From an uncultured Prolixibacteraceae bacterium (GTDB lineage Bacteria > Bacteroidota > Bacteroidia > Bacteroidales > FEN-979): DNA of 64,000 bases. How positions within the stretch are numbered: position 1 is the stretch's first letter; every line of letters begins with the position of its first letter. The stretch covers positions 37,171 to 101,170 of the forward strand of contig CAZXQU010000001.1 of assembly GCA_964642545.1 (NCBI GenBank). Direction: 5' to 3'. The translations under genes were made by a program, and so were the position numbers. The notes under the pieces are model-generated. The model was given only the letters and a program-made list of their open reading frames with translations. It made no database searches and was not told the DNA's origin. Below are positions 8,462 to 64,000 of the stretch, in pieces.

Positions 8462-9318
8462 CCATTGAATTTTGCAACCATCCAGTTGTTCTTAACCCGG
8501 GTTCCGGAGATTCTAAGTCCGTGCTTTCCTGCATAGGCTTCAACCGTAGGCAGATCTTCTGTATAAAACCCGCTTAGAAACAGCCCCCCCCCCTTTTTTA
8601 ATGCAGTTGCATAGGACGGAATCTGCTCGATCAAGGTATTTCGGTTGATATTTGCTAGTATCACGTCAAATTGTTCGAGTGGAATATCCGAAGCGTCTCC
8701 CCGAATAACGTCAATAGTACTTGTATTATTCTTTATCACATTCTCCAAGGCATTCTCAACAGCCCATTTATCATAATCGATCGCAACTACCCGGCCGGCC
8801 CCCATTTTGGAGGCCAGGATTGCCAGTACTCCGGTGCCGCAGCCCATATCAAGAACTGTTTTACCGATCACAACTTCATCCAGGAGGGATTCAATCATCA
8901 GGGAGGTCGTTTCATGATGGGCCGTGCCGAAAGACATCTTTGGTTCAATAACAATGTCAATTATGGATGCTGGATGCCGGATGCCGGATGCCGGATGAAA
9001 TGGAGCGCGGATATAGCATCTTCCAGCGACCAGAACCGGTTCATAAGAGCTTTCCCAGATCGCGTTCCAATTTTCTTCCGGCATCCTTGTAACACTCCAG
9101 AAAAGATCTTTCAGATTAGGATATTTATTCAGGACCTGATGAATTTCGCCTTCGTTAAAATCCATTTCCTTGATGTAGGCAAACAGTACTGTATCTTCTT
9201 CATTGAAACTATCAAATCCCACCTCCGACAGTTCAGCTATCAGAATGTCTGAATAGCCCTGAACAACAGGCTGAAATGCTATTTCAAGAAAAAGTGAGGA
9301 GGGTTGATGGCTGCCCAT
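8458..9318 (-). CDS. prmA: ribosomal protein L11 methyltransferase
   Basis: It has the SAM-binding motif DMGCGTGVLAI, preceded by PKMSFGTAHHETT, and a PrmA-like N-terminal domain. It contains an in-frame heptamer array (8965-8999). Confidence 0.9.
   Translation of the reverse strand: MGSHQPSSLFLEIAFQPVVQGYSDILIAELSEVGFDSFNEEDTVLFAYIKEMDFNEGEIHQVLNKYPNLKDLFWSVTRMPEENWNAIWESSYEPVLVAGRCYIRAPFHPASGIRHPASIIDIVIEPKMSFGTAHHETTSLMIESLLDEVVIGKTVLDMGCGTGVLAILASKMGAGRVVAIDYDKWAVENALENVIKNNTSTIDVIRGDASDIPLEQFDVILANINRNTLIEQIPSYATALKKGGGLFLSGFYTEDLPTVEAYAGKHGLRISGTRVKNNWMVAKFNG
8584..8599. repeat. homopolymer tract C10 T6 (G10 on the coding strand) inside prmA
   Basis: The plus strand reads cagCCCCCCCCCCTTTTTTaa. 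The coding strand reads tta aaa aag ggg ggg ggg ctg (LKKGGGL). Confidence 0.9.
8965..8999. repeat. heptamer array (GGATGCY) x5 inside prmA
   Basis: The units are ggatgct ggatgcc ggatgcc ggatgcc ggatgaa. On the coding strand they read in all three frames as HPASGIRHPAS. Confidence 0.95.
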
Positions 9319-12153: not shown

Positions 12154-12195
12154 GGTTAATAGATACTGGATAATGGATACTAGATACCAGCATCT
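12154..12195. repeat. degenerate heptamer array (RGATACT-like) x6 filling the permease/DoxX spacer
   Basis: The units are ggttaat agatact ggataat ggatact agatacc agcatct. The DoxX-gene stop (cta at 12194-12196) straddles the last unit. Confidence 0.8.
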
Positions 12196-15624: not shown

Positions 15625-15652
15625 CAGGCATCAGGCATGTGACATCCGGCAT
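15625..15652. repeat. heptamer array (CAGGCAT-like) x4 between convergent cdaA and the TPR lipoprotein gene
   Basis: The units are caggcat caggcat gtgacat ccggcat. The array abuts the lipoprotein stop codon (cta at 15653-15655). Confidence 0.85.
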
Positions 15653-16174
15653 CTATTTTATCTCGCTTTGTTGAGCTTCAAACTCCTGGATCATCTGTTC
15701 AGGAGTTTTTCCCAGATTTCTTATTGATGCCTGGGCATCATCCACAAAGTCGTGATCGGGATAGGTATCGATAAAGAGCTGGTATGTCTCTCTGGCTTTG
15801 TCAATATCACCCATTACATTTTCCTGTACATATCCGGTAAAGAAAAGGCACAGAGGAGCTTTTTCAAAATCGGGATAGGATTCCCGGATTTGTTCAAAAA
15901 GAGCAATGGATCCCGGCCCATTTTGCAGGTTCATTGTCATGGAGGCTGCTTTGAAGAGATATACCGGTGAGAGTGAATCATCGGGATAGGTCCCAGCAAA
16001 ATCCCTGTACATCTGAATAAGGGAATCAGCTCCCACACGGGAGAAGCCACTTTCGGTGGTAAACATCCGATCCTCCATCGAGGAAATCTGATCTTCTGTC
16101 TGCGTTTTGGAGGGACCACAAGCGGAAATTAATCCGGTAAGAGCAAAAAGAATTATATACGATACCTTTTTCAT
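15653..16174 (-). CDS. TPR-like lipoprotein (YbgF-like fold)
   Basis: It has a lipoprotein signal (LTGLISAC) and TPR-like helical repeats (YPDDSLSPVYLFKAA..., YPDFEKAPLCLFFTGY..., YPDHDFVDDAQ). Confidence 0.6.
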   Translation of the reverse strand: MKKVSYIILFALTGLISACGPSKTQTEDQISSMEDRMFTTESGFSRVGADSLIQMYRDFAGTYPDDSLSPVYLFKAASMTMNLQNGPGSIALFEQIRESYPDFEKAPLCLFFTGYVQENVMGDIDKARETYQLFIDTYPDHDFVDDAQASIRNLGKTPEQMIQEFEAQQSEIK

Positions 16175-16200
16175 AGAGCTGTTATATTATATTGTCATCA

Positions 16201-16264
16201 TTTCCTAATTTTCTAATTTCCTATTTTCCTAATTTCCTAATTTCCTAATTTCCTAATTTCGTAT
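16201..16264. repeat. octamer array (TTTCCTAA) x8 between def and the TPR lipoprotein gene
   Basis: The units are tttcctaa ttttctaa tttcctat, then tttcctaa x4, then tttcgtat, in unbroken 8-nt phase. The last unit runs into the def stop codon (16264-16266). Confidence 0.95.
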
Positions 16265-16839: not shown

Positions 16840-16867
16840 GGTTTCGTATTTCGTATTTCGTATTTCG
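16840..16867. repeat. heptamer array (TATTTCG) x4 filling the ruvX-def spacer
   Basis: The units are ggtttcg tatttcg tatttcg tatttcg. The whole 30-nt spacer between the def ATG (16839) and the ruvX stop (16870) is repeat. Confidence 0.95.
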
Positions 16868-16869
16868 TG

Positions 16870-17361: not shown

Positions 17362-18180
17362 ATGACAAAGGATATCAGATCTCTCATTGAGGCAGCCTGG
17401 AATGACCGGGAGATGCTGAAGCATGCGGATACACAACAGGTCATCAGGCTTGTCATCGATCTCCTTGACAAAGGGAAACTTCGGGTTGCAGAGTATACAG
17501 GGGAGGAATGGGTTACTTTCAAGTGGATAAAGAAAGCTGTTATCCTCTATTTCCTTATTCAGAAACTGGAAACTATCCAGGTGGATCCATTCGAATTCTT
17601 CGATAAAATTCCGTTAAAAAAAGATTATGGGAGGCTTGGTGTACGTGTTGTCCCTCCTGCAGTAGCTCGCTACGGCTCCTTCATCGCCGAGGGCGTAGTA
17701 ATGATGCCCTCCTATATTAATATTGGAGCTTACGTCGATAGCGGAACGATGGTTGACACTTGGGCAACCGTAGGTTCCTGCGCTCAGATAGGCAAAAACG
17801 TCCACCTCAGTGGAGGGGTTGGGATTGGTGGTGTTCTGGAACCTATTCAGGCAGCTCCCGTAATTGTGGAAGATGGTTGTTTTATCGGTTCACGCTCCAT
17901 AATTGTTGAGGGGGTTCGTATTGAACGGGAAGCGGTTTTGGGAGCCAATGTCGTTCTTACCTCCTCAACCCGGATCCTAGATGTATCGGGAAGTGAACCT
18001 GTTGAGAGGAGAGGATCTATTCCGGTGCGGTCAGTCGTGATACCCGGTTCTTATACAAAATCCTTCCCTGCCGGAGATTTCCAGGTAGCGTGTGCCCTGA
18101 TCATCGGGAAACGGAAGGCTTCGACTGACCTTAAAACATCGCTGAACCAGGCACTCAGAGAGTTCGACGTTCCGGTATGA
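17362..18180 (+). CDS. dapD: 2,3,4,5-tetrahydropyridine-2,6-dicarboxylate N-succinyltransferase
   Basis: 272 aa. The C-terminal half is a left-handed beta-helix of hexapeptide repeats (GAYVDSGTMVDTWATVGSCAQIGKNVHLSGGVGIGG...). The N-terminal helical domain is DapD-like. Confidence 0.85.
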   Translation: MTKDIRSLIEAAWNDREMLKHADTQQVIRLVIDLLDKGKLRVAEYTGEEWVTFKWIKKAVILYFLIQKLETIQVDPFEFFDKIPLKKDYGRLGVRVVPPAVARYGSFIAEGVVMMPSYINIGAYVDSGTMVDTWATVGSCAQIGKNVHLSGGVGIGGVLEPIQAAPVIVEDGCFIGSRSIIVEGVRIEREAVLGANVVLTSSTRILDVSGSEPVERRGSIPVRSVVIPGSYTKSFPAGDFQVACALIIGKRKASTDLKTSLNQALREFDVPV

Positions 18181-19151
18181 AAAAAATCTTGGTCATTCAA
18201 ACAGCCTCCATCGGAGATGTGATCCTGGCTACAGCTCTTCTGGAGAAGCTGCATCATTTCTATCCGGATGCCCGCATCGATTTCCTGGTAAAAAAAGACA
18301 TGCAATCCCTCTTCAACGGGCATCCATTTATTAACCGGTTGCTCATCTGGGATAAATCAGTAAAATATCGCAGTTTCTTCCGATTAATCAAGGACGTTCG
18401 ATCGGAACGATACGACTTTGCAATCAACATTCAGCGCTTCGCTTTAACCGGTATCCTGACTGCTCTTTCAGGTGCAAAAGCCACTATCGGATTCGATAAA
18501 AACCCCCTCTCATGGGCCTTCAGCAATAGGATACCGCATAAAGTTGGCAATGGGATTCATGAAACCCAACGCAATCAGAGGCTGATCGCTGAGATAACGG
18601 ATGAGAATGTGGAGAAGCCAAAGTTATATCCTGAGAAGATCCAGCATCCAGTATCAGGTATCTATTATACAATTTCCCCTGCATCCCTCTGGTTCACAAA
18701 ACAATATCCTGCCGAACGCTGGGCCGAACTGATCGGGCAGATGTCTGAGGAGGCAATGGTCTACTTGTTGGGATCGAAGGCAGATTTTGAACTCTGTGAA
18801 GAGATACGGGATACGGGATATGGGATACGCGGATCGCGAATCGTGAATCTCGCCGGCCAGCTTTCCCTCCTAGAATCAGCAGCCCTGATGCAGGGTGCGA
18901 GGATGAACTTTACCAACGATTCAGCACCAATGCATCTGGCTTCTGCTGTCAATGCCCCGGTTTCGGCAGTCTATTGTTCCACCACACCTGATTTTGGGTT
19001 TGGCCCCCTCTCCGATAATCGCGCGATTGTTGAGGTTCAGACGGAATTATCCTGCCGACCCTGTGGTTTACATGGTCGAACAAGTTGTCCGGAGGGCCAT
19101 TTCAGATGCGCTGTTGATATAAATATGGAAACCCTAAGATCCCGCCTTTGA
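18177..19151 (+). CDS. glycosyltransferase family 9 (heptosyltransferase-like)
   Basis: It has the N-terminus MKKILVIQTASIGDVILATALLEKL and the motif NDSAPMHLASA. Its ATG overlaps the dapD stop (ATGA). It contains an in-frame heptamer array (18801-18849). Confidence 0.8.
   Translation: MKKILVIQTASIGDVILATALLEKLHHFYPDARIDFLVKKDMQSLFNGHPFINRLLIWDKSVKYRSFFRLIKDVRSERYDFAINIQRFALTGILTALSGAKATIGFDKNPLSWAFSNRIPHKVGNGIHETQRNQRLIAEITDENVEKPKLYPEKIQHPVSGIYYTISPASLWFTKQYPAERWAELIGQMSEEAMVYLLGSKADFELCEEIRDTGYGIRGSRIVNLAGQLSLLESAALMQGARMNFTNDSAPMHLASAVNAPVSAVYCSTTPDFGFGPLSDNRAIVEVQTELSCRPCGLHGRTSCPEGHFRCAVDINMETLRSRL
18801..18849. repeat. morphing heptamer array x7 inside the GT9 gene
   Basis: The units are gagatac gggatac gggatat gggatac gcggatc gcgaatc gtgaatc. 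They encode EIRDTGYGIRGSRIVN in frame. Confidence 0.9.
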
Positions 19152-22235: not shown

Positions 22236-23081
22236 ATGAAACGACTTATAATCTATTTACTGCTCCTTGTCATTGTCGCAGCAGCCTGTACTGAACGGAT
22301 TGAGTTGAATCTGGATGAGACCTATACACGATTGGTGGTTGATGGTGACATATCGAATGATACGGGCAGCTACCAGGTTACCCTGAGCAAAACAGCCGAC
22401 TATTTCTACAACGAACCAGCTCCACGTGTTGTCAATGCTACCGTCAGTTTGAACAATGACTCAGATTCCTATCTCCTTCACGAAACTGAGCCAGGAATAT
22501 CCGGGATCTATGAGACCGATTCATCGTTTTATGGGATCATTGGAGAGACATATACCCTCGACATCGATCTGGATCAACCAATCGATAATGAGACCAATTA
22601 CACATCCTCGTGCAAGATGATGAATGTGGCCCGCCTTGATTCCATCCAGGTAGTATTTCAGACAGATTGGGGCCCTAAAGGCATCTGGGAGATCAGAGTT
22701 TTTGCCCAGGAACCCGGAGATGAAGTCAATTATTACATGTTCCGATACTACCGGAACGACACACTGATGAGCGATTCGATCTGGAAAGTAGAAATATCTG
22801 ATGATAAGTATATCAACGGCGGCTACATCAATGGACTTACAGCGATCTATATCAATAACGAAAATCCATGGGAGACATTTAAACCAGGCGATAAAGTAAC
22901 TCTCCAAATGTCGGGAATCACCAAAGAGTATTACGATTTTATTTACCAGGTGAAACTCTCGGGATTCAACATCCCTTTCTTTACCGGCCCTCCAGCCAAC
23001 GTTCAGGGCAATATAAGCAATGGGGGGATTGGGTTCTTCTCAGCTTATTCCAATACGTGGGGGAGTACGATTGTGAAATAG
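22236..23081 (+). CDS. DUF4249-like lipoprotein (TonB-dependent receptor partner)
   Basis: It has a lipoprotein signal (VAAAC) and lies 13 nt downstream of the TonB-dependent receptor. The family assignment is from the remembered TBDR+DUF4249 pairing and is not verified. Confidence 0.6.
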   Translation: MKRLIIYLLLLVIVAAACTERIELNLDETYTRLVVDGDISNDTGSYQVTLSKTADYFYNEPAPRVVNATVSLNNDSDSYLLHETEPGISGIYETDSSFYGIIGETYTLDIDLDQPIDNETNYTSSCKMMNVARLDSIQVVFQTDWGPKGIWEIRVFAQEPGDEVNYYMFRYYRNDTLMSDSIWKVEISDDKYINGGYINGLTAIYINNENPWETFKPGDKVTLQMSGITKEYYDFIYQVKLSGFNIPFFTGPPANVQGNISNGGIGFFSAYSNTWGSTIVK

Positions 23082-23112
23082 CGAAATAGCGAAATAGCGA
23101 AATAGCGAAAAT
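23073..23112. repeat. octamer array (GCGAAATA) x5 after the DUF4249 gene
   Basis: The units are gtgaaata, gcgaaata x3, gcgaaaat. The TAG stop codon (23079-23081) is formed across the unit 1/2 junction. Confidence 0.95.
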
Positions 23113-24519: not shown

Positions 24520-24556
24520 CCTACAGCCTAAAAGCCTAACAGCCTACAGCCTAATC
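24520..24556. repeat. 7/8-nt array (CCTACAG / CCTAACAG) x5 abutting the GT2 start codon
   Basis: The units are cctacag cctaaaag cctaacag cctacag cctaatc, followed immediately by the ATG at 24557. Confidence 0.9.
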
Positions 24557-27465: not shown

Positions 27466-27528
27466 CTGAAATACGAAAGATGAAATACGTATTTCCTAAT
27501 TTCCTAATTTCCTAATGACCAATGACCA
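27466..27528. repeat. composite repeat in the pyrK-pyrD spacer: TGAAATACG x2 (15 nt apart), ATTTCCTA x3, ATGACCA x2
   Basis: tgaaatacg occurs at 27466 and 27481. atttccta occurs three times at 27491-27514. atgacca occurs twice at 27515-27528. The second ATGACCA carries the pyrD start codon (27522). Confidence 0.9.
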
Positions 27529-28436
27529 ACCTTCAAGTAAATATCGCCGGACTCACCTTCAAAAATCCCGTTACCACGGCATCTGGCACATTCGGGTATG
27601 GAGATGAGTTCAGAGACTTCATGGATCTTGGTAAGATCGGAGGTATCTTTGTCAAAGCGGTAACTGGCTCCAACAGGGAGGGAAACGCCTATCCCCGTAT
27701 GGCTGAAACTCCGTCGGGGATGTTAAATTCGGTGGGTCTGCAAAACAAAGGCGTTGACCATTTCGTCAGAGAGATCTATCCCCGGATCAAAGATTTTGAC
27801 ACCCATATCATTGTCAATGTTTCAGGCTCCACACTAGAAGAATATGTGGAGGTAGCCGCCCGGATGAATGAACTGGAGAATGTATCTGCCATTGAGCTGA
27901 ACATTTCCTGCCCCAATGTCAAACAGGGCGGGATGGCTTTTGGAACCGTGCCGTCCATGTCGTCGGAAGTGACCCGGGCTGTGAGGGATGTCTACAAGGG
28001 GGTGCTGATGGTCAAACTTTCACCCAATGTCACCAGTATTATCGAAATCGCAAAGGCGGTGGCCGACGGTGGCGCAGATGTGTTGACACTCGTAAATACA
28101 CTCTTGGGAATGGCTATTGATGCCGATCGTCGTCGCCCTATCCTCTCCACTATTACAGGAGGACTCTCTGGTCCGGCCATCAAGCCTGTTGCCTTACGGA
28201 TGGTATGGCAGGTCCACAATGCTGTAAACCTGCCCGTAATTGGTCTTGGCGGTATCATGAACGCTACCGATGCCATTGAATTCATGCTAGCCGGCGCTTC
28301 TGCCATCCAGGTTGGAACTGCCAACTTCATCGATCCGGCAGTCTCCGTCAAAATTGTGGAAGGCATTGAAGCTTATATGCTGAAACACTGTATTACCGAC
28401 GTAAATGAGCTGATCGGTGGATTGCGGACTGATTAA
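27522..28436 (+). CDS. pyrD: dihydroorotate dehydrogenase 1B, catalytic subunit
   Basis: Motifs [14 protein letters not shown] (catalytic Cys loop), [10 protein letters not shown] and GLGGI are present. Confidence 0.92.
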
Positions 28437-28479: not shown

Positions 28480-31056
28480 ATGATCTATAATACTCTGTTT
28501 TCAAAAAAAAAGTTGGTTAAACCTCTTTTTTCGATAACTTTCATTGCATTGCTATCAGTCATTTCCTGGCAAGCCAATCGCTTTGATCATTCCTCTAATC
28601 TTAACATTAGGGGCCACTTCCAACCCCCATCTGTTACCCCCAACGACTGGATGGCAATGCAGCGGATCTATCCCTATGACCGGATTCAGCCTGATGCCTA
28701 CCTGGCTGCTGTTGAGCAGGCTCAGGCATTGATTGATGCCGGTGCGGTCAGAAGTACCCCCTGGGTTTTTACCGGTCCAACCAACATCGGAGGCAGAATT
28801 ACCGACATCGAGATTCCTGATGGTGACCTCCAGACAATCTATATTGGCGCCTCTACAGGTGGAGTGCTCAAAACCACAGACGGTGGGATCACTTGGAACA
28901 ACCTGTTTAAAAATATCCCCGTTGTATCCATTGGAGATATTGCGATTGATCCGGGCAATTCCGATGTCCTCTACGTTGGAACGGGCGAAGCAAACTCCTC
29001 CAGCTTCAGCTTCTGGGGAAACGGAATGTACAAGTCGACCGATGCAGGCCAAACCTGGCAACATATAGGCCTGGAAAATTCGGCCTACATCGGAAGGGTG
29101 CTGGTGGATAATGCCAACTCACAGCGTGTCTTTGTAGCTGCCTGTGGCTATCTCTTCTCCTACAATGATGAACGGGGGGTTTACCGCAGTGAAGATGGTG
29201 GAACGACCTGGGAAAGGACATTATATCTGACTGATTCTACTGCTGCTATCGATTTAGTGCAGCATCCCACCAATCCTGATATTCTTTATGCAGCTATGTG
29301 GGAACGAAGCCGCGGGCTGGAATACCGGAACTCTTTCGGAGCCACCTCAGGGATATGGAAAACAATGGACGGTGGAGATACATGGATTGAGCTGACCAAT
29401 GGCCTCATGGCTGGTGAGGATGTAGGCAGAATCGGAATCTCCATGTGCAAGTCACAGCCCGATATCCTTTATGCTGTTTATGATCTGCCCAACTTCGAGG
29501 TAGCTGTCTTTAAAACAGATAACGGGGGAGATACATGGACGCGTACAAATGATGGGGATCTCTTCGGAATGTGCAGTAATTTCGGCTGGTACTTCGGGCA
29601 GATCCGGGTTGACCCGATAAATTCAAACAGAGTGTTTGTTATGGGAGTTCCACTCTACGCTTCTCAAGATGGAGGACAATCATGGTATGAAGTTACCAAC
29701 AACATCCATGTTGACCATCATGCAATGGTAATTGACGAGACAACCTCCACGATCTTTGAAGGAAATGACGGAGGTTTATATGTCAGCGGTAACTACGGAA
29801 GTTCATGGTTGAAAATCAACAACCTTCCCATCACGCAATTCTATGCCATCGATATCGATTACCTGAAACCTGAGCGCATATACGGTGGTACACAGGACAA
29901 CAACACCATCCGGACACGCACAGGCGCTGTTAATGACTGGGAAGCGATTCTTGGTGGCGACGGCATGTACACCCTGGTTGATTACACCAACTCGAATATC
30001 ATCTATGCTGAATACCAGTGGGGAAACCTTTACCGGTCCGACAATGGTGGAAATAATATGATTGATATCGGCCAGAATTGGGAAAACGAACGCACAAACT
30101 GGTCGTCACCTCTTGCAATGCACCCCGAAGACCCGACCATTCTCTATTTCGGCACCTACAGGATATGGAAGACCTTCAACAGGGGGAACAGTTGGACTCC
30201 TTTTAGTGAAGATCTGACACAAGGCATCGACCAGTATTTCCATACCATTACAACCATCACCATCTCTCCCGTTGATCCTTCTATTATCCTTGTTGGAACA
30301 GGAGATGGGAAAGTCCAGGTGTCGACAAATGATGGCCTCACCTGGACTGATGTCTCGGCAGGGCTTCCGAACCGTTGGGTAACACGCGTAACCCCGGACC
30401 CCTTCGACAGTCAAACGATTTATGCCACCCTCTCTGGTTTCAGATGGGATGAGCCACTCCCCCATGTTTACAAATCTACTGACCTGGGGCAAACCTGGAC
30501 AGCGATCTCAGGAAATCTGCCGGAATTCCCCGTAAATGATATCGTACTGGATCCCGATGTTGCTAACAAAATCATTGTTGCGACTGATGCCGGTTTGTAT
30601 GGTTCGGGCGATGCAGGTATCACGTGGGAGTGGATTTGGACTGACCTTCCTGCTGTTCCTACCTATGCGCTCAAGGTACATGCACCTTCACGAACGATCG
30701 TTGCCGGCACCTATGGGCTCTCCACTTATTCGGCCAGCATGGATGAAATCCTGGTGGGTGCAGAAAGTGAAAAAATCCAACGAAAAGGGCGCCTTACTAC
30801 TACACCAAACCCTGTAACCACCAATACCTCTATTCAGTTCTTTCTTCCCGAAGCCGATCATCTTACCTGTTCTATCATCAACATGAATGGAATAGTAAGT
30901 AATGCTGATTCAAAAATTATCGGAGATCTTCAACGGGGAGAGCATTCAATCAGGATAACAGATCTGGGAGATATAAACCAGATGCCGTCGGGGATCTACC
31001 TGGTGGTGATTGAGGGGAATCGTACAAAAATTTCGGGAAAAATTGTGGTGTTGTAA
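28480..31056 (+). CDS. sortilin/VPS10-like BNR (Asp-box) beta-propeller protein with a T9SS C-terminal sorting domain
   Basis: Asp-box repeats recur (TTDGGITW, STDAGQTW, SEDGGTTW, TMDGGDTW, TDNGGDTW, SQDGGQSW, STNDGLTW, STDLGQTW, SGDAGITW). The C-terminal ~80 aa (TTTPNPVTTNTSIQFFLPEA...GIYLVVIEGN...GKIVVL) resemble a type-A T9SS CTD. The start is trimmed to ATG 28480, which has a signal peptide. Confidence 0.8.
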   Translation: MIYNTLFSKKKLVKPLFSITFIALLSVISWQANRFDHSSNLNIRGHFQPPSVTPNDWMAMQRIYPYDRIQPDAYLAAVEQAQALIDAGAVRSTPWVFTGPTNIGGRITDIEIPDGDLQTIYIGASTGGVLKTTDGGITWNNLFKNIPVVSIGDIAIDPGNSDVLYVGTGEANSSSFSFWGNGMYKSTDAGQTWQHIGLENSAYIGRVLVDNANSQRVFVAACGYLFSYNDERGVYRSEDGGTTWERTLYLTDSTAAIDLVQHPTNPDILYAAMWERSRGLEYRNSFGATSGIWKTMDGGDTWIELTNGLMAGEDVGRIGISMCKSQPDILYAVYDLPNFEVAVFKTDNGGDTWTRTNDGDLFGMCSNFGWYFGQIRVDPINSNRVFVMGVPLYASQDGGQSWYEVTNNIHVDHHAMVIDETTSTIFEGNDGGLYVSGNYGSSWLKINNLPITQFYAIDIDYLKPERIYGGTQDNNTIRTRTGAVNDWEAILGGDGMYTLVDYTNSNIIYAEYQWGNLYRSDNGGNNMIDIGQNWENERTNWSSPLAMHPEDPTILYFGTYRIWKTFNRGNSWTPFSEDLTQGIDQYFHTITTITISPVDPSIILVGTGDGKVQVSTNDGLTWTDVSAGLPNRWVTRVTPDPFDSQTIYATLSGFRWDEPLPHVYKSTDLGQTWTAISGNLPEFPVNDIVLDPDVANKIIVATDAGLYGSGDAGITWEWIWTDLPAVPTYALKVHAPSRTIVAGTYGLSTYSASMDEILVGAESEKIQRKGRLTTTPNPVTTNTSIQFFLPEADHLTCSIINMNGIVSNADSKIIGDLQRGEHSIRITDLGDINQMPSGIYLVVIEGNRTKISGKIVVL

Positions 31057-31057
31057 T

Positions 31058-31108
31058 CTGTAGAGACGGAGCATGCCTGTAGAGACGAGGCATGCCTCGT
31101 CTCTACAG
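31058..31108. terminator. perfect 32-nt palindrome preceded by a 19-nt direct copy of its left arm, between the convergent T9SS-cargo gene and murB
   Basis: 31077-31108 is CTGTAGAGACGAGG-CATG-CCTCGTCTCTACAG, a 14-bp perfect stem with a 4-nt loop. 31058-31076, CTGTAGAGACGGAGCATGC, repeats 31077-31095 with 17 of 19 matches. There is no flanking U-tract. The right arm contains the murB Leu-stop (CTGTAG on the minus strand). Confidence 0.6.
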
Positions 31109-32116
31109 AATATTGACCTCTGGGTCCAATAATATCCCAAACCTGGCTAACACCGATTGGCGGATCAGGGATGCCAGTGTCAGGATCTCCTGGCCTGTTG
31201 CGTTTCCATAATTCACCAGTACCAAGGGCTGATCAGGATGAACGCCTGCGTCACCAGTGCGTTTGCCTTTCCAGTGGCACTGGTCTATCAGCCAGGCAGC
31301 AGCCAGCTTCACGCCATTGGGGTCAGCATAATTAACGATATCAGGGTATTGATTTTTAAGCCTTACAAACTGGTCGGAACGGATGACCGGATTCCGGAAG
31401 AAACTGCCGGCATTCCCGGCAACTGCAGGGTCAGGAAGTTTATTCTTCCGGATCCTGCAAACAACATCCCGTACATCCTGGATTGTTGGCGAGGAGATGC
31501 CAGAGCGGTCCAACTCCAATTTAATAGATCCATAAGCCAGCTTCAGGACAGGTCTTTTGTCAAGCCTTAGCGTTACGCTAGTGATGAGGTATTGTCCTCG
31601 GAGCTTTTTCTGGAAGATGCTCTCACGGTATCCAAAACGACAATCATCTCTGGAGAAGGTACGTTGTTCATGTGTCGTCAAATGAACGGTATCGACTTCC
31701 TGAAGAACCTCTTTGAGTTCTACCCCATAGGCTCCAATGTTCTGGATTGGGCTGGCACCCATCCGACCAGGGATCAGGGAAAGGTTCTCGACTCCCCCCC
31801 ACCCCTTTTGCACACAATACTCAACCACTTCATCCCAGATCTCCCCTGCAGCAACCCGAATAGTGATGGATTCATCATCCTGTTCAACGATGGTAATCCC
31901 TTTTGTATCAAGACGAATTACCGTCCCCGGGAAATTATCCGTAAAAAGAATATTGCTGCCATCTCCCAGCAACAATAATGGTTGATGATCTTCATTCAGA
32001 GATGCTAATACCGTCAAAACATCCTCTTCCCGGTCGATCTCAATAAAATACCTGGCGTTGGCCTGGATGCCAAAGGTATGTTCATGCTTGAGGGATTTAT
32101 ACTCCTGAATAACCAT
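31103..32116 (-). CDS. murB: UDP-N-acetylenolpyruvoylglucosamine reductase
   Basis: 337 aa. It has an FAD-binding PCMH domain (LLLLGDGSNILF) and a MurB C-terminal domain (AGSFFRNP, AAWLIDQCHWKG). Confidence 0.88.
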   Translation of the reverse strand: MVIQEYKSLKHEHTFGIQANARYFIEIDREEDVLTVLASLNEDHQPLLLLGDGSNILFTDNFPGTVIRLDTKGITIVEQDDESITIRVAAGEIWDEVVEYCVQKGWGGVENLSLIPGRMGASPIQNIGAYGVELKEVLQEVDTVHLTTHEQRTFSRDDCRFGYRESIFQKKLRGQYLITSVTLRLDKRPVLKLAYGSIKLELDRSGISSPTIQDVRDVVCRIRKNKLPDPAVAGNAGSFFRNPVIRSDQFVRLKNQYPDIVNYADPNGVKLAAAWLIDQCHWKGKRTGDAGVHPDQPLVLVNYGNATGQEILTLASLIRQSVLARFGILLDPEVNIL

Positions 32117-32175: not shown

Positions 32176-33306
32176 ATGCCGGTCAAGTGTGCCATCGTAT
32201 GCGTTACCAATGACCTCACCACCGATCAACGGGTGGACCGCACATGCATAACCCTTATGGAACTAGGCTATTCCGTGATTTTGATAGGCCGGAAACTGAA
32301 TAAAAGCCTTCCACTGATACCCCGTTTGTATGAGATGCACCGGATGCCGTTATGGTTTAACAAAGGCCCGTTTTTCTATGCTAACTACAATATTCGCCTG
32401 TTTTTATATCTAATTACCCATAAATTCAGCCTTATCGTCTCCAACGACCTTGATACCCTTCCTGCCAGTTTTCTGGCATATAAAATAAAAACCAGGGGGG
32501 TGACACTCCTCCACGACTGTCACGAATACTTTCGCGGGGTGCCGGAACTGGTTGGGCGGAAAGGGACCACACGTGTTTGGAAATGGATCGAAGACAGAAT
32601 ATTTCCACGTCTGGAACTGATAACTGCAGTCAATGGATCCGTTGCAAAACTCTACAAGGAAGAGTATGGCAATGAGATTGTCGTGATCAGGAACGTCCCG
32701 TTCCGCAAGCATGGCGGAGAAGCTATCTCCAAAGAATCACTGGGGATATCTCCACATCAGAAGGTGATTCTCTATCAGGGAGCTGTAAACCTGGACAGAG
32801 GACTTGAAGAGATTATCCAGGCAATGAAATATATACGATGTGATGCAAAGTTGGTGATTGTAGGAACGGGTGATAAGTTTGATGAACTTCAGGCATTTGT
32901 GAAACAGGAGAAGGTACCGGGCAAAGTAATCTTCACCGGGCCAATTCCATTCCAGGATCTTTATCGCTATACGCTTATGGCAGATATCGGATTATCGGTT
33001 GAGAAGGACGTAAGCCTAAACTACCATTTTGCATTACCAAACAAGTTCCTGGATTATATTCAGGCCAATGTCCCCCTTCTGATCTCACCATTCCCTGAAA
33101 TGAAAGCAATCCTCGATAAATATTTTATCGGGGAGGTGCTGGAGAGCCATGACCCGATACATATCGCAGAGAAGATTGACGGGATGCTATTGAATGAAAC
33201 CCGGCTGGCGCTTTTTCGCGAGAACCTTCTTTCGGCTGCAGAAGAACTTTGCTGGGAGAATGAGGAGCCAAAGTTGAAGAAGATGCTGGAAGAGAATGAG
33301 GAATGA
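32176..33306 (+). CDS. glycosyltransferase (GT-B fold, GT4-like)
   Basis: The C-terminal half has the GT-B pattern (ILYQGAVNLDRGLEE...LVIVGTGD...). The start is trimmed to ATG 32176. The stop codon lies inside a heptamer array. Confidence 0.7.
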   Translation: MPVKCAIVCVTNDLTTDQRVDRTCITLMELGYSVILIGRKLNKSLPLIPRLYEMHRMPLWFNKGPFFYANYNIRLFLYLITHKFSLIVSNDLDTLPASFLAYKIKTRGVTLLHDCHEYFRGVPELVGRKGTTRVWKWIEDRIFPRLELITAVNGSVAKLYKEEYGNEIVVIRNVPFRKHGGEAISKESLGISPHQKVILYQGAVNLDRGLEEIIQAMKYIRCDAKLVIVGTGDKFDELQAFVKQEKVPGKVIFTGPIPFQDLYRYTLMADIGLSVEKDVSLNYHFALPNKFLDYIQANVPLLISPFPEMKAILDKYFIGEVLESHDPIHIAEKIDGMLLNETRLALFRENLLSAAEELCWENEEPKLKKMLEENEE

Positions 33307-33384
33307 ATTACGAATTACGAATTATGAATTATGAATTGAATATCAATGAATTGAAACCCGAAACCCGAAACCCGAAACTTGAAA
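33294..33384. repeat. heptamer-derived arrays spanning the whole GT4/GT spacer
   Basis: The units are gaatgag gaatgaa ttacgaa ttacgaa ttatgaa ttatgaa, then a degenerate bridge (ttgaatatcaatgaattgaaa), then cccgaaa x3 and cttgaaa. The upstream TGA (33304-33306) and the candidate TTG start (33379) both lie in units. Confidence 0.92.
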
Positions 33385-34530
33385 CTAACACTTCACATCA
33401 TAAGCTTTGACGTCCCGTTTCCTCCCAATTACGGGGGGGTGATCGATATCTATTACAAGATTCGGGCGCTCCATGAAGCCGGGGTAAATGTAATCCTGCA
33501 CTGTTTCCAGGATCAAAGGGATCCAAATCCTGAACTTAAGAAACTATGTACCGAGGTATGTTACTATCCGCGTCAAAAGAGCATCCTGAATCTCATGTCC
33601 CTGCGACCTTACATCGTTGCCAGCCGGAATTCAGAATCCCTGCGAAAGCGGCTATTGCAGGACGAGTATCCAATCCTGTTTGAAGGACTGCATACCTGCA
33701 ATATCCTGAATGATCGAGCTTTTCGGGACCGTAAAAAGATTTACAGGGAGAGTAACATTGAACACGACTATTATTATCACCTCTATAAGGCGACAGGAAA
33801 TATCCTTGACAAAGTGTTTTTCCTGGCCGAGAGCATGAAATTGCGCTGGTTCCAAAGGATCCTTAAACATGCTGACCTGATGCTGGCAGTCTCAAAAGCA
33901 GACGAACAGTACCTGAAATTCAAGTTTCCACAAAAGGATATCCGGTATTTGCCATCATTTCACCTGGATGACAAAATAAGTTCAAAACCTGGCCGGAGTT
34001 CCTACCTGCTTTACCAGGGCAAATTAAGTGTTCCGGAAAATATTCGTGCCGCAGAATATATCATCAATCATATCTACACTGACTCTCTTCCTGATCTGAT
34101 TATCGCCGGGATGAATCCTCCTGGGCATCTCATTAAACTAATTGAAAAGCATCCCAACATTCGACTGGAGATCAACCCCGATGACGACAGAATGTTTGAA
34201 CTCATTCGGGATGCACAGATCAACCTCCTGGTGACATCGCAACCAACCGGATTGAAGCTGAAACTATTAAATGCGCTGTTTCATGGCCGGCACTGCCTGG
34301 TGAATCCCGAAATGCTTGTGGGGACAGGGTTGAATGATGTTTGCACAACAGCAAAAACGCCTCAACAATTCCGTGACGAGATTGGCACCCTTTTCTTGAA
34401 AGATTTCGACGCTGGGATGATAGCCCACCGTGAGGCTATAATCATGGAAAAATACTCCAATAAAAAAAATTGTATAAGCCTAACGGATATATTAACTTTG
34501 TTCTATGAAAAAAATACTCGTTCCGGTTGA
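33379..34530 (+). CDS. glycosyltransferase (GT-B fold, GT4-like)
   Basis: The N-terminus HIISFDVPFPPNYGGVIDIYYKIRAL and a C-terminal GT-B half are present. The TTG start at 33379 is taken from the ORF track and lies in the last repeat unit, so the start is uncertain. Confidence 0.6.
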   Translation: MKLTLHIISFDVPFPPNYGGVIDIYYKIRALHEAGVNVILHCFQDQRDPNPELKKLCTEVCYYPRQKSILNLMSLRPYIVASRNSESLRKRLLQDEYPILFEGLHTCNILNDRAFRDRKKIYRESNIEHDYYYHLYKATGNILDKVFFLAESMKLRWFQRILKHADLMLAVSKADEQYLKFKFPQKDIRYLPSFHLDDKISSKPGRSSYLLYQGKLSVPENIRAAEYIINHIYTDSLPDLIIAGMNPPGHLIKLIEKHPNIRLEINPDDDRMFELIRDAQINLLVTSQPTGLKLKLLNALFHGRHCLVNPEMLVGTGLNDVCTTAKTPQQFRDEIGTLFLKDFDAGMIAHREAIIMEKYSNKKNCISLTDILTLFYEKNTRSG

Positions 34531-38424: not shown

Positions 38425-40185
38425 TTACCTGATCAGGGTCGCATTGTATTCAGTGCGGTTTCCAACACCGTCAGTAATGATCAGCTGGAATTTGTTCGTA
38501 CCGGCTTTGATCCGGCTATCGTATTTGTACTCCAGCCTGTTCTGTTTGGCATCATAATCCATTAAAATCCAACTCCCGTTCAATGTCCCACGGTAACTTT
38601 TGATTCCGGAGAAATCATCTGAGATTGTGAGTACGATTGTACTCTGCTTGCTGATGTTCTTGTTGTTATAAATATTGACTGCCTTGATTTTAGGTGGCAT
38701 TGAATCTACGCTGATAGTGTAAGCTCCAAACTCGCGTATCTTTCCAGTCACATAGCCATCGTTGAATTTCCCTCCCTGACTGACAAATTTTCCACTTTTT
38801 TCAACCTTTGCAAGAAGTGCTCTTGATTCAAGCCATCTTGGAAGAGTTTCGGCTCTGATTGAAAGGGTGCAGCGAAGATGCATCGGAGTCTCTTCATCCT
38901 GCAAATAATGAACACGGGAGTAACTTCCGTTTATTGGAGGCTTTGTAGTGTATTGAAAATCCAGATCTTCATAGAGGGTATTTTCAGGCATCATAAAGTT
39001 AAGGTAGGTATTTTCAAATTCGTTTTCCTGATCCCAGGCGAAACTATTCGAAGGCGTAGTTGTTTCAGTTGGCCCTACACCAGAAGAGGTGGGCGGATGA
39101 CTTTTCACCCAAAATGTAATCTGAGATGTATTGCCATAAGAATCTTTAACAACATATTGAATTTTGTGCGCCTTCAGGTCAGTAAAATTAACAATGCCCC
39201 GGTTGACTACTCCATCGAAAATTTCCAGATTGTTTCCGGGAGCGATATATGACCTGAAAAATCGCTGTTTGTTCTTAATGTTCTGGGGATAGTCAAGGAT
39301 CGCATTAACATACCGGGTATCAGCAAAGGCATACCTGTCAATACGCTGGCCGAATACCTTCTCTCCATCAACCTTCAACTCGATCGATTTAATTCCGCAA
39401 CGAATGGATGATGTATTTTGAAAATCGTATGCTTCTATCCCAAAGATGATATCACCTGAAACCATGACTGTATCGGACGAAACGACTCCATATTTCCCAT
39501 TACCTCCGGCAGCCTGCAGTGCTTTCGGATTGGAAGTATAGTTTACCATTGCAGTTTGGCCATAAGGGTAGATTTTTACCCATTTGATCTGGGGTTGAAG
39601 GTTGTCCTGAATTCGGATTCCAAAAGAGAGGGGATCCAAAGGATCCTGACTTCGGCCATCTCTTATCTCAAAATGAAGATGAGGGCCTCCTGATGAGCCT
39701 GAATTTCCTGAATACCCGATCACGTCACCTTTCCGCACCTGAATTTTGCCGGACGGAACAGTGACATCAATCGAAAATGACTCCTTTGCATACTGTTGCT
39801 CATATGCATAAGCAGCTATCTCTCCGCGAAAACGATCCAGATGCCCGTACACCGTTGTGTAACCGGAAGGATGACTGATATAAATTGCTTTCCCAAAGCC
39901 CCAGGGGGAGACGAAGATCCTGGAAACGTATCCATCTGCAGCAGAATAAACTGGCTTGCCTGTCACCCCGGCAGTACGAATATCGATTCCCGAATGAAAA
40001 TGATTTGGTCTAATCTCACCATAAGATCCTGATAGTGAAAGAGTAAAATCGACGGGGGACCGGAACAGGGTTTGAGAATAGTTGGTCTGAGAGCTGCCGG
40101 TGAGAGTGACTAATAACAACAGGAGAGTGAGGGAAACACCAACTGCCAACTGCCTACTGCCTACTGCCAACTGCCTACTGCCCAT
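38425..40185 (-). CDS. M23 family metallopeptidase (LytM-like)
   Basis: The zinc motifs HFHSGIDI (HxxxD) and GPHLHFE (HxH) are present. The N-terminus [16 protein letters not shown] is encoded by six heptamer repeats ahead of the signal-peptide core. The true start may be an in-frame TTG inside the array. Confidence 0.85.
40141..40182. repeat. heptamer array (WACTGCC) x6 at the 5' end of the M23 gene
   Basis: The units are aactgcc aactgcc tactgcc tactgcc aactgcc tactgcc. The minus strand encodes [14 protein letters not shown] directly after the ATG at 40185. The HAD stop codon (40175-40177) is inside the array. Confidence 0.95.
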
Positions 40186-40675
40186 TGTCTGCTAACTTAC
40201 TTACAGTTTCAGAAAGTTCTCCCATGTTGTCAATCACCCGATCAGCCTGTTCAAATATCCCCGTCAGTTTATTTTCATTGTAGTAAACCGTCTTCATTCC
40301 AGCCCTTTTAGCCCCTACGATATCCTTGGTATAATGATTCCCAACCATCAAGCAATCTTCAGGTGCAACGTCAAGTTTCTCGGCAATAGTGAGGAAAAAC
40401 CGAGGATCGGGTTTCCCATAGCCAAGTTCTTTTGAAGAGAAAAAATTCGCAAAAAAACTCTCTGCTCCAACACGTGCAAGCGCTTTTATCATCTCTTCTG
40501 TTCCCGAATGAGGGGCATTGGTAGCAATACAAAGCTGATATTGAGTAGATAATTTACTCAATGAATTTTGCGCTCCGGGAACCCAATCTACCTGATCCCA
40601 GAGGTACATTGGACCCGGAAGTGCATAGTCGATCATAATTGTACCACCCCAGTCAAATATTAGTAGTTTAATCAT
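40175..40675 (-). CDS. HAD-superfamily hydrolase (variant motif I)
   Basis: Motif I is LIFDWGGT, in which the second Asp of DxDxT is replaced by Gly. Motif II is IATNA, motif III is GKPDP and motif IV is MVGNHYTKD. The start is trimmed to ATG 40675 (MIKLLIFDWGG). Confidence 0.75.
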   Translation of the reverse strand: MIKLLIFDWGGTIMIDYALPGPMYLWDQVDWVPGAQNSLSKLSTQYQLCIATNAPHSGTEEMIKALARVGAESFFANFFSSKELGYGKPDPRFFLTIAEKLDVAPEDCLMVGNHYTKDIVGAKRAGMKTVYYNENKLTGIFEQADRVIDNMGELSETVSKLADNGQ

Positions 40676-52158: not shown

Positions 52159-52207
52159 GGTGATAGGCGTGATGAAATCGTAATTCATAATTCGTAATTC
52201 GTAATTG
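52159..52207. repeat. morphing heptamer array x7 (core CGTAATT x4 at 52179-52206) upstream of miaA
   Basis: The units are ggtgata ggcgtga tgaaatc gtaattc ataattc gtaattc gtaattg, in constant 7-nt phase. The array ends 5 nt before the miaA ATG at 52213. Confidence 0.85.
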
Positions 52208-52212
52208 ATAAA

Positions 52213-57782: not shown

Positions 57783-57803
57783 CAGAAAAACCGAAAGCTG
57801 GAT

Positions 57804-57859
57804 CCCAGATCCCAGATCCCAGATCCCAAATCTCTAATCCCTAATCCCTAATCCCTGAT
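57804..57859. repeat. morphing heptamer array x8 (CCCAGAT to CCCTAAT) in the OsmC leader
   Basis: The units are cccagat x3, cccaaat, ctctaat, ccctaat x2, ccctgat. The array lies between the -7 box (57775-57782) and the ATG at 57865. Confidence 0.95.
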
Positions 57860-57864
57860 TCTTT

Positions 57865-58260
57865 ATGTCAATTGAAGTAAAATTTCCAGGCGGAGTGAAA
57901 GTAGACGCCCTTATCGAACCATTTGTAATTTCCACAGACCAGCCTGTCAGAGGAGGCGGAGAGGGTACAGCCCCTGCTCCTTTCTCACTATTTCTTGCAT
58001 CACTTGCAACCTGTGCCGGCTATTATGTAAAAGCTTTCTGTGACTCACGTCAGCTCTTCTCGGAAGGGGTTTCCCTTACAATGGATACAATATATGATCC
58101 ATTGAACAAAATGATTGGAAAGATCATTATTAAGATTATCGTTCCAATGGATTTTCCAGAGAAATATGATAATGCCCTGATCAATGCAGCCAATGTGTGT
58201 GCTGTGAAACGGCATCTGTCTGACCAGATTGAGGTCGAAACCCTTGTTGTAAGAGAATAA
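57865..58260 (+). CDS. OsmC family protein (peroxiredoxin-like)
   Basis: 131 aa. It has an OsmC-like pattern with two cysteines (LASLATCAGYY ... NVCAVKRHL). Confidence 0.75.
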   Translation: MSIEVKFPGGVKVDALIEPFVISTDQPVRGGGEGTAPAPFSLFLASLATCAGYYVKAFCDSRQLFSEGVSLTMDTIYDPLNKMIGKIIIKIIVPMDFPEKYDNALINAANVCAVKRHLSDQIEVETLVVRE

Positions 58261-58288
58261 GGCACAGGGCACAAGGCACAGGGCACAG
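58261..58288. repeat. heptamer array (GGCACAG) x4 starting immediately after the OsmC stop codon
   Basis: The units are ggcacag ggcacaa ggcacag ggcacag. The array is the left flank of the PLP-enzyme remnant. Confidence 0.92.
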
Positions 58289-58413
58289 GAGAATGCCATG
58301 AAAGTTGCCGAATACCTAGAAGCACATCCCAAAGTAGCATGGGTTAAGTACCCCGGGCATAACGTGGGATTCTGTGTTTTGGCTGTATCCCTTGGGGGAA
58401 TAGAGACCCTGAT
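58289..58413 (+). pseudogene. remnant of a Cys/Met-metabolism PLP enzyme (cystathionine gamma-synthase / methionine gamma-lyase / OAH sulfhydrylase family)
   Basis: The translation ENAMKVAEYLEAHPKVAWVKYPG...FCVLAVSLGGIETLIQYPAS matches two conserved C-terminal blocks of the family (..NA.KVAEFL..HP.V..V.YPGL and F..A.SLGG.ESLI.HPASMTH). About 40 aa between the blocks are missing, as are the whole N-terminal ~300 aa and the last ~40 aa. The remnant is flanked by heptamer arrays on both sides. Confidence 0.6.
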
Positions 58414-58448
58414 CCAGTATCCAGCATCCAGCATCTGGCATCCAGCAT
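58414..58448. repeat. heptamer array (CCAGCAT) x5, right flank of the PLP-enzyme remnant
   Basis: The units are ccagtat ccagcat ccagcat ctggcat ccagcat. They read as YPASSIWHPAS in the remnant frame. Confidence 0.92.
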
Positions 58449-58495
58449 CAAAAATATCGCGTATATTTGTCCGTTTGATACGTAAACTGATTCGG

Positions 58496-62983: not shown

Positions 62984-62985
62984 AG

Positions 62986-63048
62986 GACGTGAGACGTGGG
63001 ACGTGAGACGTGGGAAGTGAGACGTGAGACGTAAATCGTAAATCGAAC
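62986..63048. repeat. morphing heptamer array x9 (GACGTGR to ATCGTAA) after the DUF349 gene
   Basis: The units are gacgtga gacgtgg gacgtga gacgtgg gaagtga gacgtga gacgtaa atcgtaa atcgaac. The array starts 3 nt after the TAA at 62981-62983. Confidence 0.95.
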
Positions 63049-63110: not shown

Positions 63111-64000
63111 TTGTCCAGCAACTCCATAGGAAAAAACATCGTACTGACTACTTTCGGGGAGTCTCACGGGACTGCTGTTGGAGGGATTCTAGATGGATTT
63201 CCTGCAGGGATTGAGATCGACATTCCTATGATTCAATCGGAAATCAACCGGCGTAATCCTGCCAAATATCCGTTTGCCACAGCACGAAAAGAGGATGATA
63301 AACTGGAGATTCTTTCCGGTATCTATGACGGGCAGTCAACAGGGGCTCCAATTGCATTTCTGGTTTATAACCATGATCAAAGGCCCGAGGAATACGATAA
63401 CCTGAAAGACCTCTACCGGCCTTCGCATGCCGACTTTACCTATGAGGCGAGATACGGGATCCGGGATCCGCGTGGTGGCGGAAGGGCTTCGGCACGTACC
63501 ACACTTTCGGTTGTTGCCGGAGGAGCCTTTGCGAAACAGATTCTTGCCCTGAATAAAATCATTGTTATCGGGTATGTTTCCCAAATCGGGCCACATTCGC
63601 TACCAACAGGGTTTAGTCTTGCCGATCGTGCACTTGTAAAACTTTCTCCCCTTGCATGTCCGCATGAAAAGACGACCCAAAAAATGCTTGATTTCCTTCA
63701 CACGTTGAAAGAAGAGGGCGATACAGCAGGAGGTGTCATCTCATGTGTCATCAAAGGTGTTCCCGCCGGAATCGGCGATCCGTTGTTTGGCAAAATCCAG
63801 GCCGACCTGGCCAAAGCGATGCTGAGCATCAATGCGGTAAAAGGATTTGAATACGGATCGGGCTTCAAAGCCGCCTCCATGAAAGGATCAGAGCACAACG
63901 ATGAATTCATCCTGGAAGAGAACCTGATCAGAACAAAAACCAACCACGACGGCGGCATCCAGGGAGGCATCTCCAACGGGATGGACATCACCTTCAACGT
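63111..64000 (+). CDS. aroC: chorismate synthase; 3' end off-window (absent from the supplied ORF track)
   Basis: My own translation from TTG 63111 gives LSSNSIGKNIVLTTFGESHG...RPSHADFTYEARYGIRDPRGGGRASARTT...SINAVKGFEYGSGF...TNHDGGIQGGISNG. No stop occurs before the window edge. An in-frame TAA at 63096-63098 limits any upstream extension. Confidence 0.9.
   Translation, partial: MSSNSIGKNIVLTTFGESHGTAVGGILDGFPAGIEIDIPMIQSEINRRNPAKYPFATARKEDDKLEILSGIYDGQSTGAPIAFLVYNHDQRPEEYDNLKDLYRPSHADFTYEARYGIRDPRGGGRASARTTLSVVAGGAFAKQILALNKIIVIGYVSQIGPHSLPTGFSLADRALVKLSPLACPHEKTTQKMLDFLHTLKEEGDTAGGVISCVIKGVPAGIGDPLFGKIQADLAKAMLSINAVKGFEYGSGFKAASMKGSEHNDEFILEENLIRTKTNHDGGIQGGISNGMDITFN

Follow-up and report, generated by a model that had tools for sequence, protein, structure and literature searches.

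A heptanucleotide repeat array at the 5' end of an M23 metallopeptidase gene in an uncultured Prolixibacteraceae bacterium

The HAD-M23 junction and the start of M23 translation

We analysed a 64-kb stretch (the window) of contig CAZXQU010000001.1 from an uncultured Prolixibacteraceae bacterium, in which a heptamer array joins the gene of a HAD-family hydrolase to the 5' end of a gene for an M23 metallopeptidase (Table 1). Metagenome-assembled Bacteroidales genomes are the nearest relatives that bear a name. The translated M23 product shows the metal-binding motifs HFHSGIDI and GPHLHFE and belongs to the M23 family; a protein search with it returned more than 7,800 homologues. The gene encodes a peptidoglycan hydrolase, is single-copy and is syntenic: the order leucine-rich repeat (LRR) protein, M49 peptidase, HAD, M23 and GuaA is kept in the relatives L023-28, L029-32 and L040. 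Judging from a dN/dS of 0.105 at a dS of 0.47 between the window and L023, it is functional and under purifying selection. No promoter-like or terminator-like site and no Rfam match were found at the HAD-M23 junction, and the RNA fold there is unremarkable (z=+0.6). The missing signals fit co-transcription of the two genes.

Read on the minus strand, the junction runs from GCAGACA through the M23 ATG into six GGCAGTW units (40141-40182), whose W position reads A, T, A, A, T, T in this order, and then into GGTGTTTCC. An earlier note on this DNA had described six units directly behind the ATG, the HAD stop codon inside the unit nearest HAD and in-frame TTG codons at positions 6 and 13; the sequence and Tandem Repeats Finder (TRF) reproduce all of this, with the HAD stop lying within unit 1. 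When the array is read in the phase CAGTWGG, a seventh, degenerate unit appears, CAATGGG (40187-40181), and the M23 ATG lies inside it; units of the form CAGTGGG and CAGTAGG are present in the homologous array of the relative L039. In the M23 frame the array makes up 14 codons, the first 14 after the ATG. Its longest perfectly 7-periodic stretch is 20 nt, less than three units, with A and T alternating at one position. TRF also listed an exact 21-nt sequence in two copies, which we considered as a frame-preserving duplication of three units and then dropped, as only two variable positions are compared and the match is near-trivial.

The GGCAGTW unit occurs at no other locus in the window. Searched with up to two mismatches, GGCAGTWGGCAGTW has 8 matches in the window compared with 0.61 expected, and five of the eight are within the M23 array. 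Repeats are generally hard to assemble, and one contig (ERZ27248961 k141_15434) stops about 30 nt upstream of the ATG; nothing further speaks for chance similarity or an assembly artefact. The JGI, ENA (MEGAHIT) and Logan assemblies give the identical sequence, the 49-nt array fits within one read, and both the GGCAGTWGGCAGTW matches and the number of period-7 and period-8 repeats described below are far outside chance. An artefact is already refuted by the independent assemblies, and we regard this explanation as a whole as practically eliminated.

Table 1. Features of the HAD-M23 junction (window coordinates)
Feature	Position	Strand	Remarks
M23 metallopeptidase open reading frame	38425..40185	-	586 aa from ATG 40185; Pfam PF01551, E=2.9e-21
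Signal-peptide hydrophobic core	40099..40137	-	next come GSSQ and the conserved N-terminus of the mature protein
GGT (Gly16)	40138..40140	-	aligns with the L023 ATG directly before the hydrophobic core (protein alignment)
Core heptamer array	40139..40182	-	six GGCAGTW units and the first bases of a broken seventh; TRF period 7, 6.3 copies, 91% matches
In-frame TTG, codon 13 (alternative start)	40147..40149	-	unit 5/6 junction; context score -5.3, poor
In-frame TTG, codon 6 (alternative start)	40168..40170	-	4 nt past the HAD stop; context score -3.3
HAD stop TAG	40175..40177	-	spans the unit 1/2 boundary (TA from unit 1, G from unit 2)
HAD-family hydrolase gene	40175..40675	-	166 aa from MIKLL; Pfam Hydrolase/HAD_2; C-terminal tail and stop array-derived
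Degenerate upstream unit CAATGGG	40181..40187	-	holds the M23 ATG; overlaps the last HAD codons
ATG (likeliest M23 start)	40183..40185	-	shares 11 nt with the HAD 3' end; context score -1.4, within the range of 44 window starts

Past the array, the sole in-frame ATG, GTG or TTG is a TTG within the hydrophobic core. Starting there would put 19 residues ahead of the conserved RSP motif, compared with 21-43 (median 31) in the ordinary leaders of 99 orthologues. Since no usable start codon follows the array, initiation must, on this evidence, lie at ATG 40185, TTG 40170 or TTG 40149. The earlier note had named as its own weakness that the real start could lie past the array. This objection is largely removed by the shortness of the leader, and also by the finding that the ATG preceding the core in L023 is GGT in the window.

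We consider ATG 40185 the probable start, TTG 40149 a tentative and clearly less probable one, and TTG 40170 a quite improbable one. Lys or Arg is found in the signal-peptide n-region of 93 of the 99 orthologues, and the leader beginning at ATG 40185 would contain two Arg, the one from TTG 40170 a single Arg and the one from TTG 40149 none. The overlap of ATG 40185 with the HAD stop may permit translational coupling. A position weight matrix of start contexts, derived from the starts of 44 genes in the window, reflects hardly more than a depletion of G and was used only as weak support: the regions upstream of these 44 starts are G-poor, the random mean score is -2.3, and TTG 40149 falls below 41 of the 44 real starts.

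Initiation at TTG 40149 would turn the array into an untranslated spacer repeat, at once the trailer of HAD and the leader of M23, in which copy number alters only the length of the leader. From this codon the leader has 29 residues before RSP, near the orthologue median, and the other such arrays in the window fill spacers and stop 1-27 nt short of a start codon. The apparent start of L023 (92% identity), MTSFLFLLLL, lies three codons past the position homologous to TTG 40149 and also lacks a charged n-region. Moreover, TTG 40149 is unaffected by most slippage events. We nevertheless find this reading doubtful: TTG is a rare start codon, here with a G-rich upstream context and a score under the random mean; just six of the 99 orthologues lack Lys and Arg in the n-region; and 36 nt upstream, with the frame open in between, stands an ATG of better context that is placed for coupling to HAD termination.

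The absence of a TAG from the M23 frame of the array was also considered as a sign of selection for an open frame, and was dropped as weak, its chance probability being about 0.2.

The junction in relatives and the copy number of the array

We compared the junction with that of relatives whose M23 proteins are 92% (L023-28), 81% (L029-32), 79% (L006), 70% (L039) and 65% (L040) identical to that of the window at the amino acid level. In L023, an array of about eight CGCATCA/CGTATCC units is followed by ATG ACT TCA TTT, giving MTSFLFLLLLIPLIASSQ, directly before the core. The sister species L029-32 shares CAG TAG GCAGTT at the HAD end with the window, as seen in L029; it then has an array of nine GTAAGAC units, after which come about 250 nt of unique spacer. 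The HAD-M23 spacer of L006 (L006:3900-4040, JACZJJ010000054.1) has no array. It holds a G+C-rich palindrome, CCCCTTAAGGGG...CCCCCTTCAGGGGG, and two GGCATCY units, which are possibly the remains of an array. L039 carries a GGGCAGT/AGGCAGT array, thus of the unit family seen in the window, then a 21-nt spacer, an ATG, an in-frame array of about 15 ATCCGGC-type units and the hydrophobic core. Finally, L040 and L007 have in-frame arrays between the sole available start and the core, and no start past them.

Because the same unit family is found at the junction in the 70% relative and a single GTAGGCAGTT copy lies past the HAD stop in the 81% relative, this comparison of sequences shows the GGCAGTN repeat behind HAD to be old, and its expansion to six units and its contact with the signal-peptide core to be specific to the window lineage. 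The M23 5' end turns over very fast, since entirely different, repeat-derived leaders occur among M23 proteins that share a cluster at 90% identity or more (P0008/P0132, P0006/P0135, P0014/P0141/P0149); in the first and third of these groups the mature parts are over 90% identical. Called starts are unreliable: many of the N-termini called for close M23 homologues, such as HPASGIR... and SRIPHPVSRIP..., are translated arrays. Open reading frame callers extend genes of this clade through spacer repeats, and therefore the starts and N-termini of many proteins in these genomes are unreliable as well.

Compared with L029, L031 and L032, L030 lacks exactly one GTAAGAC unit (L029:9851-9910). This loss is the only indel over the 21.9 kb covered by each comparison among the four contigs, which otherwise differ by 9-13 substitutions. 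Single-unit slippage thus occurs naturally at the orthologous junction. Per site, array indels seem far commoner than substitutions, a rough estimate from n=1 that falls short of the 1e-3 per generation known for true contingency loci. The comparison of related genomes that the earlier note had suggested has revealed that the orthologous array is polymorphic by one unit within a sister species, whose units, like those of other relatives, differ from the window's.

To survey unit number in the window species we used look-ups with the HAD protein, since these are independent of the number of M23 units, together with GuaA look-ups and the members of the 90% M23 cluster. The HAD look-ups recovered eight contigs with a 153-aa HAD and two with a 166-aa HAD; an exact look-up of the 177-aa maximal HAD open reading frame had no match. 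Identical contigs come from JGI 3300028191 and 3300028298, SRR8437287, SRR8437274 and several ERZ272489xx assemblies. Every contig displayed, across seven sample accessions, carries six units and matches the window at 100% identity. The loss in L030 is thus the sole natural slippage event seen, and the window species offers no variation from which to derive a rate of array change. P0125, the second 586-aa member of the 90% cluster, has a substitution elsewhere and the same leader with six units. No member of this cluster had a length that another unit number or a shifted start would give, and the 90% clusters of ten relatives contained no allele pairs one unit apart. In a metagenome contig collection that apparently lacks this organism, scans with a gapped pattern of 4-8 units and with the 3' flank were both empty. 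Variants in unit number, which the earlier note had suggested looking for in reads, are absent from the assembled contigs recovered.

Possible frame switching and proposed co-option of the repeat

The earlier note had proposed that the expression or secretion of this hydrolase may be phase-variable. In such a slipped-strand ON/OFF switch, ATG 40185 would be the sole start, and a change of one or two units would frameshift M23 in a heritable and reversible manner. The logic of the frame is sound. The array of 7-nt units separates the gene body from its only ATG, no start follows the array, and simulated gain or loss of a single unit uncouples the ATG from the peptidase frame, which then stops after 5-58 codons; simulated deletion of unit 1 fuses HAD to M23. 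The natural one-unit, 7-nt polymorphism in L030 also speaks for a switch. On the other side, TTG 40149, in spite of its poor context, is in the M23 frame after 10 of 12 simulated single-unit indels.

Two pathogen systems provide precedents. The CTCTT repeats of the Neisseria opa genes lie in the region encoding the leader peptide (PMC3960869). Like these, the M23 array has a unit length not divisible by three and lies inside the region encoding the signal peptide, where unit number sets the frame; it stands between start codon and open reading frame body if initiation is at ATG 40185 or TTG 40170. In opa, however, the tracts are perfect, vary within and between strains at about 1e-3 per generation and belong to multi-copy antigen genes of a host-restricted pathogen, whereas the M23 tract is short and imperfect, shows six units throughout the consensus assemblies recovered and sits in a conserved gene of housekeeping type. 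In Haemophilus influenzae, heptanucleotide repeats are found in the hmw1A and hmw2A promoters, and AACAACC repeats at a TonB-dependent receptor gene range from 1 to 13 units and include frameshifted alleles (PMC2651432). These repeats, which are candidate or accepted phase-variation tracts, resemble the M23 array in that 7-nt units lie at or near the 5' end of a gene for an envelope protein. They differ in their strain-to-strain copy variation, none of which is seen at the M23 array, and accepted heptamer tracts have 13-38 units (PMC2651432) compared with a perfect stretch of fewer than three in the M23 array.

Given a unit number of six in all contigs recovered, the imperfect tract and the candidate start TTG 40149, which tolerates most single-unit changes, a dedicated switch is unsupported, and we regard it as unlikely. 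Neither the HAD or GuaA look-ups nor the 90% cluster yielded a copy-number variant, and about 20 comparable arrays lie next to unrelated housekeeping genes. The setting also speaks against the analogy with phase-variable surface genes that the earlier note had drawn: the gene is conserved, single-copy and syntenic, has a dN/dS of about 0.1 and is no typical variable antigen, and the organism is free-living and known from lake metagenomes. If the switch were real, contingency-locus behaviour would extend to free-living environmental Bacteroidales, which the present evidence does not support. A broader form of the proposal also appears improbable. In it, the hypermutable 7- and 8-nt arrays of this clade would, besides filling spacers, remodel gene 5' ends time and again by giving rise to start codons, such as ATG 40185, and to signal-peptide n-regions (in the window, L007, L039 and L040), and the M23 array would be a real, opa-like frameshift switch of low frequency for the cell-wall hydrolase of a free-living anaerobe.

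We favour instead, with a probability of roughly 0.6, that the array is a co-opted repeat. An old GGCAGTN spacer repeat behind HAD would have expanded in the window lineage, and the remaining spacer would have been lost together with the ancestral M23 start, so that the repeat came to abut the hydrophobic core. Translation would begin most likely at ATG 40185, born inside a degenerate repeat unit, and less likely at one of the TTG codons made at the junctions of T-type units. The repeat, as the first 14 codons, would then encode the n-region, positively charged through two Arg, of a signal peptide removed on export, and this removal may be why the odd repeat sequence is tolerated. Slippage by one unit would still frameshift the product made from the ATG, which we see as a mutational liability of a co-opted repeat and not as an evolved ON/OFF device; selection would keep the array at six units. 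The locus would thus be a case in which a coding 5' end has taken in a simple-sequence repeat, with the start codon and the charged front of the signal peptide both coming from it. Heptamer arrays spread over a genome are already known, and so are repeats within leader peptides; what would be uncommon here is that one repeat makes both the start codon and the n-region.

Several points weigh against co-option. The start codon on which it depends is one that we infer, and the leave-one-out scores of the start-context model, a weak one, overlap the random distribution. Both units relevant to the frame would be of the T type, and so leave the M23 frame open, by chance with a probability of about 0.2, and an open frame is no proof of translation. 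The M23 array is G-rich in the mRNA sense, unlike the G-poor arrays that precede other starts; arrays right after stop codons are also G-rich (at 62985 in the window, and GTAAGAC in L029), which is compatible with an untranslated M23 array. As to copy number, consensus assemblies do not display minority alleles and would be consistent with low-level switching, and several sample accessions may stem from repeated assembly of identical runs.

Heptamer and octamer arrays across the window

The array at M23 is real and is not isolated to this gene, which shifts the emphasis of the earlier note. In the window, 21 TRF rows combine a period of 7 or 8 with three or more copies, compared with 0-1 in each of 20 dinucleotide-preserving shuffles. 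They amount to about 20 array loci, for which about 0.1 would be expected, and they span 8965-63470. Heptamers predominate, with 7-nt units at 15 loci and 8-nt units at four or five. Examples are the arrays at 12157-12187, 16200-16260, 16842-16868, 23075-23110, 24523-24554 and 27491-27529, and further at 33305-33385, 52178-52211, 57801-57856, 58259-58289 and 62985-63045. By approximate gene boundaries, 17 of the 19 loci lie between genes, and an array is present in about half of all gaps of at least 30 nt, so that such repeats take up much of the short spacers. Many arrays stretch from the stop codon of one gene, which in some cases falls within the first unit (23075, 33305, 58259), to a point 1-8 nt short of the next ATG (16842, 24523, 52178, 57801, 58259). 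Others trail stop codons or sit between convergent genes, and one lies inside a coding domain. Most units include a stop codon, and three or more of them close all frames. Comparable arrays are found beside unrelated housekeeping genes across the window. As the array at M23 thus belongs to a genome-wide, spacer-filling class of simple-sequence repeats, it is no special mark on an envelope gene, and the analogy to contingency loci at surface genes loses specificity.

The array inside a coding domain (18803-18849, GATACGG/GAATCGY) is in frame within the Pfam Glyco_transf_9 domain of the open reading frame 18177-19151, where it encodes IRDTGYGIRGSRIVN and apparently forms a repeat-encoded loop in a glycosyltransferase family 9 (GT9) heptosyltransferase. 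Coding arrays therefore have a precedent in this genome.

Units vary among loci, and no single conserved unit is shared by all arrays. Partial families are nevertheless recognizable. GGCATCC-like heptamers occur at 8965-8997, 15625-15653, 58412-58449 and 63451-63470, as well as upstream of M23 in L007, L023, L039 and L040; the octamer ATTTCCTA is identical at two loci (16200-16260 and 27491-27516); and AT-rich TTTCGTA-like units form another partial family. Among 28 heptamer units compared, 23 pairs are within one mismatch of each other, compared with about seven expected.

Cyanobacterial short tandemly repeated repetitive (STRR) heptamers are a comparable repeat class. Long simple-sequence repeats (LSSR) with units of 5-11 nt occur in free-living bacteria (Mrazek et al. 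2007, in the summary given by PMC4679880). As in these two classes, the arrays of the window are many, mostly heptameric, mostly intergenic and subject to fast turnover among relatives, in a free-living organism and not in a host-adapted pathogen. The window differs in that it belongs to an uncultured Bacteroidales clade, has octamers as well and many unrelated units, and contains, with the M23 array, one that lies in a coding 5' end. TAACTGA heptamers are found just upstream of start codons, in arrays of 2-6 or more units, in Beggiatoaceae, cyanobacteria and five Bacteroidetes including a Bacteroidales species (MacGregor 2015, PMC4679880). The window arrays share with them the 7-nt unit, the position near starts, spacers without Shine-Dalgarno sequences and stop-bearing units that close all frames. 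Unlike TAACTGA, they have no single conserved unit, the T-variant units of the M23 array keep one frame open, and this array lies downstream of the likely start.

As has been proposed for these repeats, the arrays might bind a sequence-tolerant regulator of single-stranded RNA or DNA (S1, Csp or CsrA-like), and the M23 array might tune translation instead of switching the frame. Arrays abut start codons, as do the TAACTGA repeats of Beggiatoaceae and Flexibacter litoralis (PMC4679880), and related units recur across loci, both the GGCATCC-like ones and the identical ATTTCCTA at two of them. We consider this very unlikely, as the units of different arrays differ widely and that of M23 is at no other window locus, arrays also lie after stops, between convergent genes and inside a coding domain, and the orthologous spacers of sister species hold unrelated units.

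Between the arrays 58259-58289 and 58412-58449, within 58259-58495, we noted a 38-codon remnant of a pyridoxal phosphate (PLP)-dependent enzyme of Cys/Met metabolism (PF01053, E=6.8e-9). The maximal open reading frame of the downstream patatin-like gene reads through this remnant, and its real start is probably MIRQLK at about 58496.

A repeat of another kind than the heptamer arrays lies at 31058-31108, between the convergent genes 28480-31056(+) and 31103-32116(-). It consists of a 19-nt direct repeat, CTGTAGAGACGRRGCATGC, in 2.1 copies and, behind this, the first part of the repeat in inverted orientation, CGTCTCTACAG, and looks like a hairpin or terminator.

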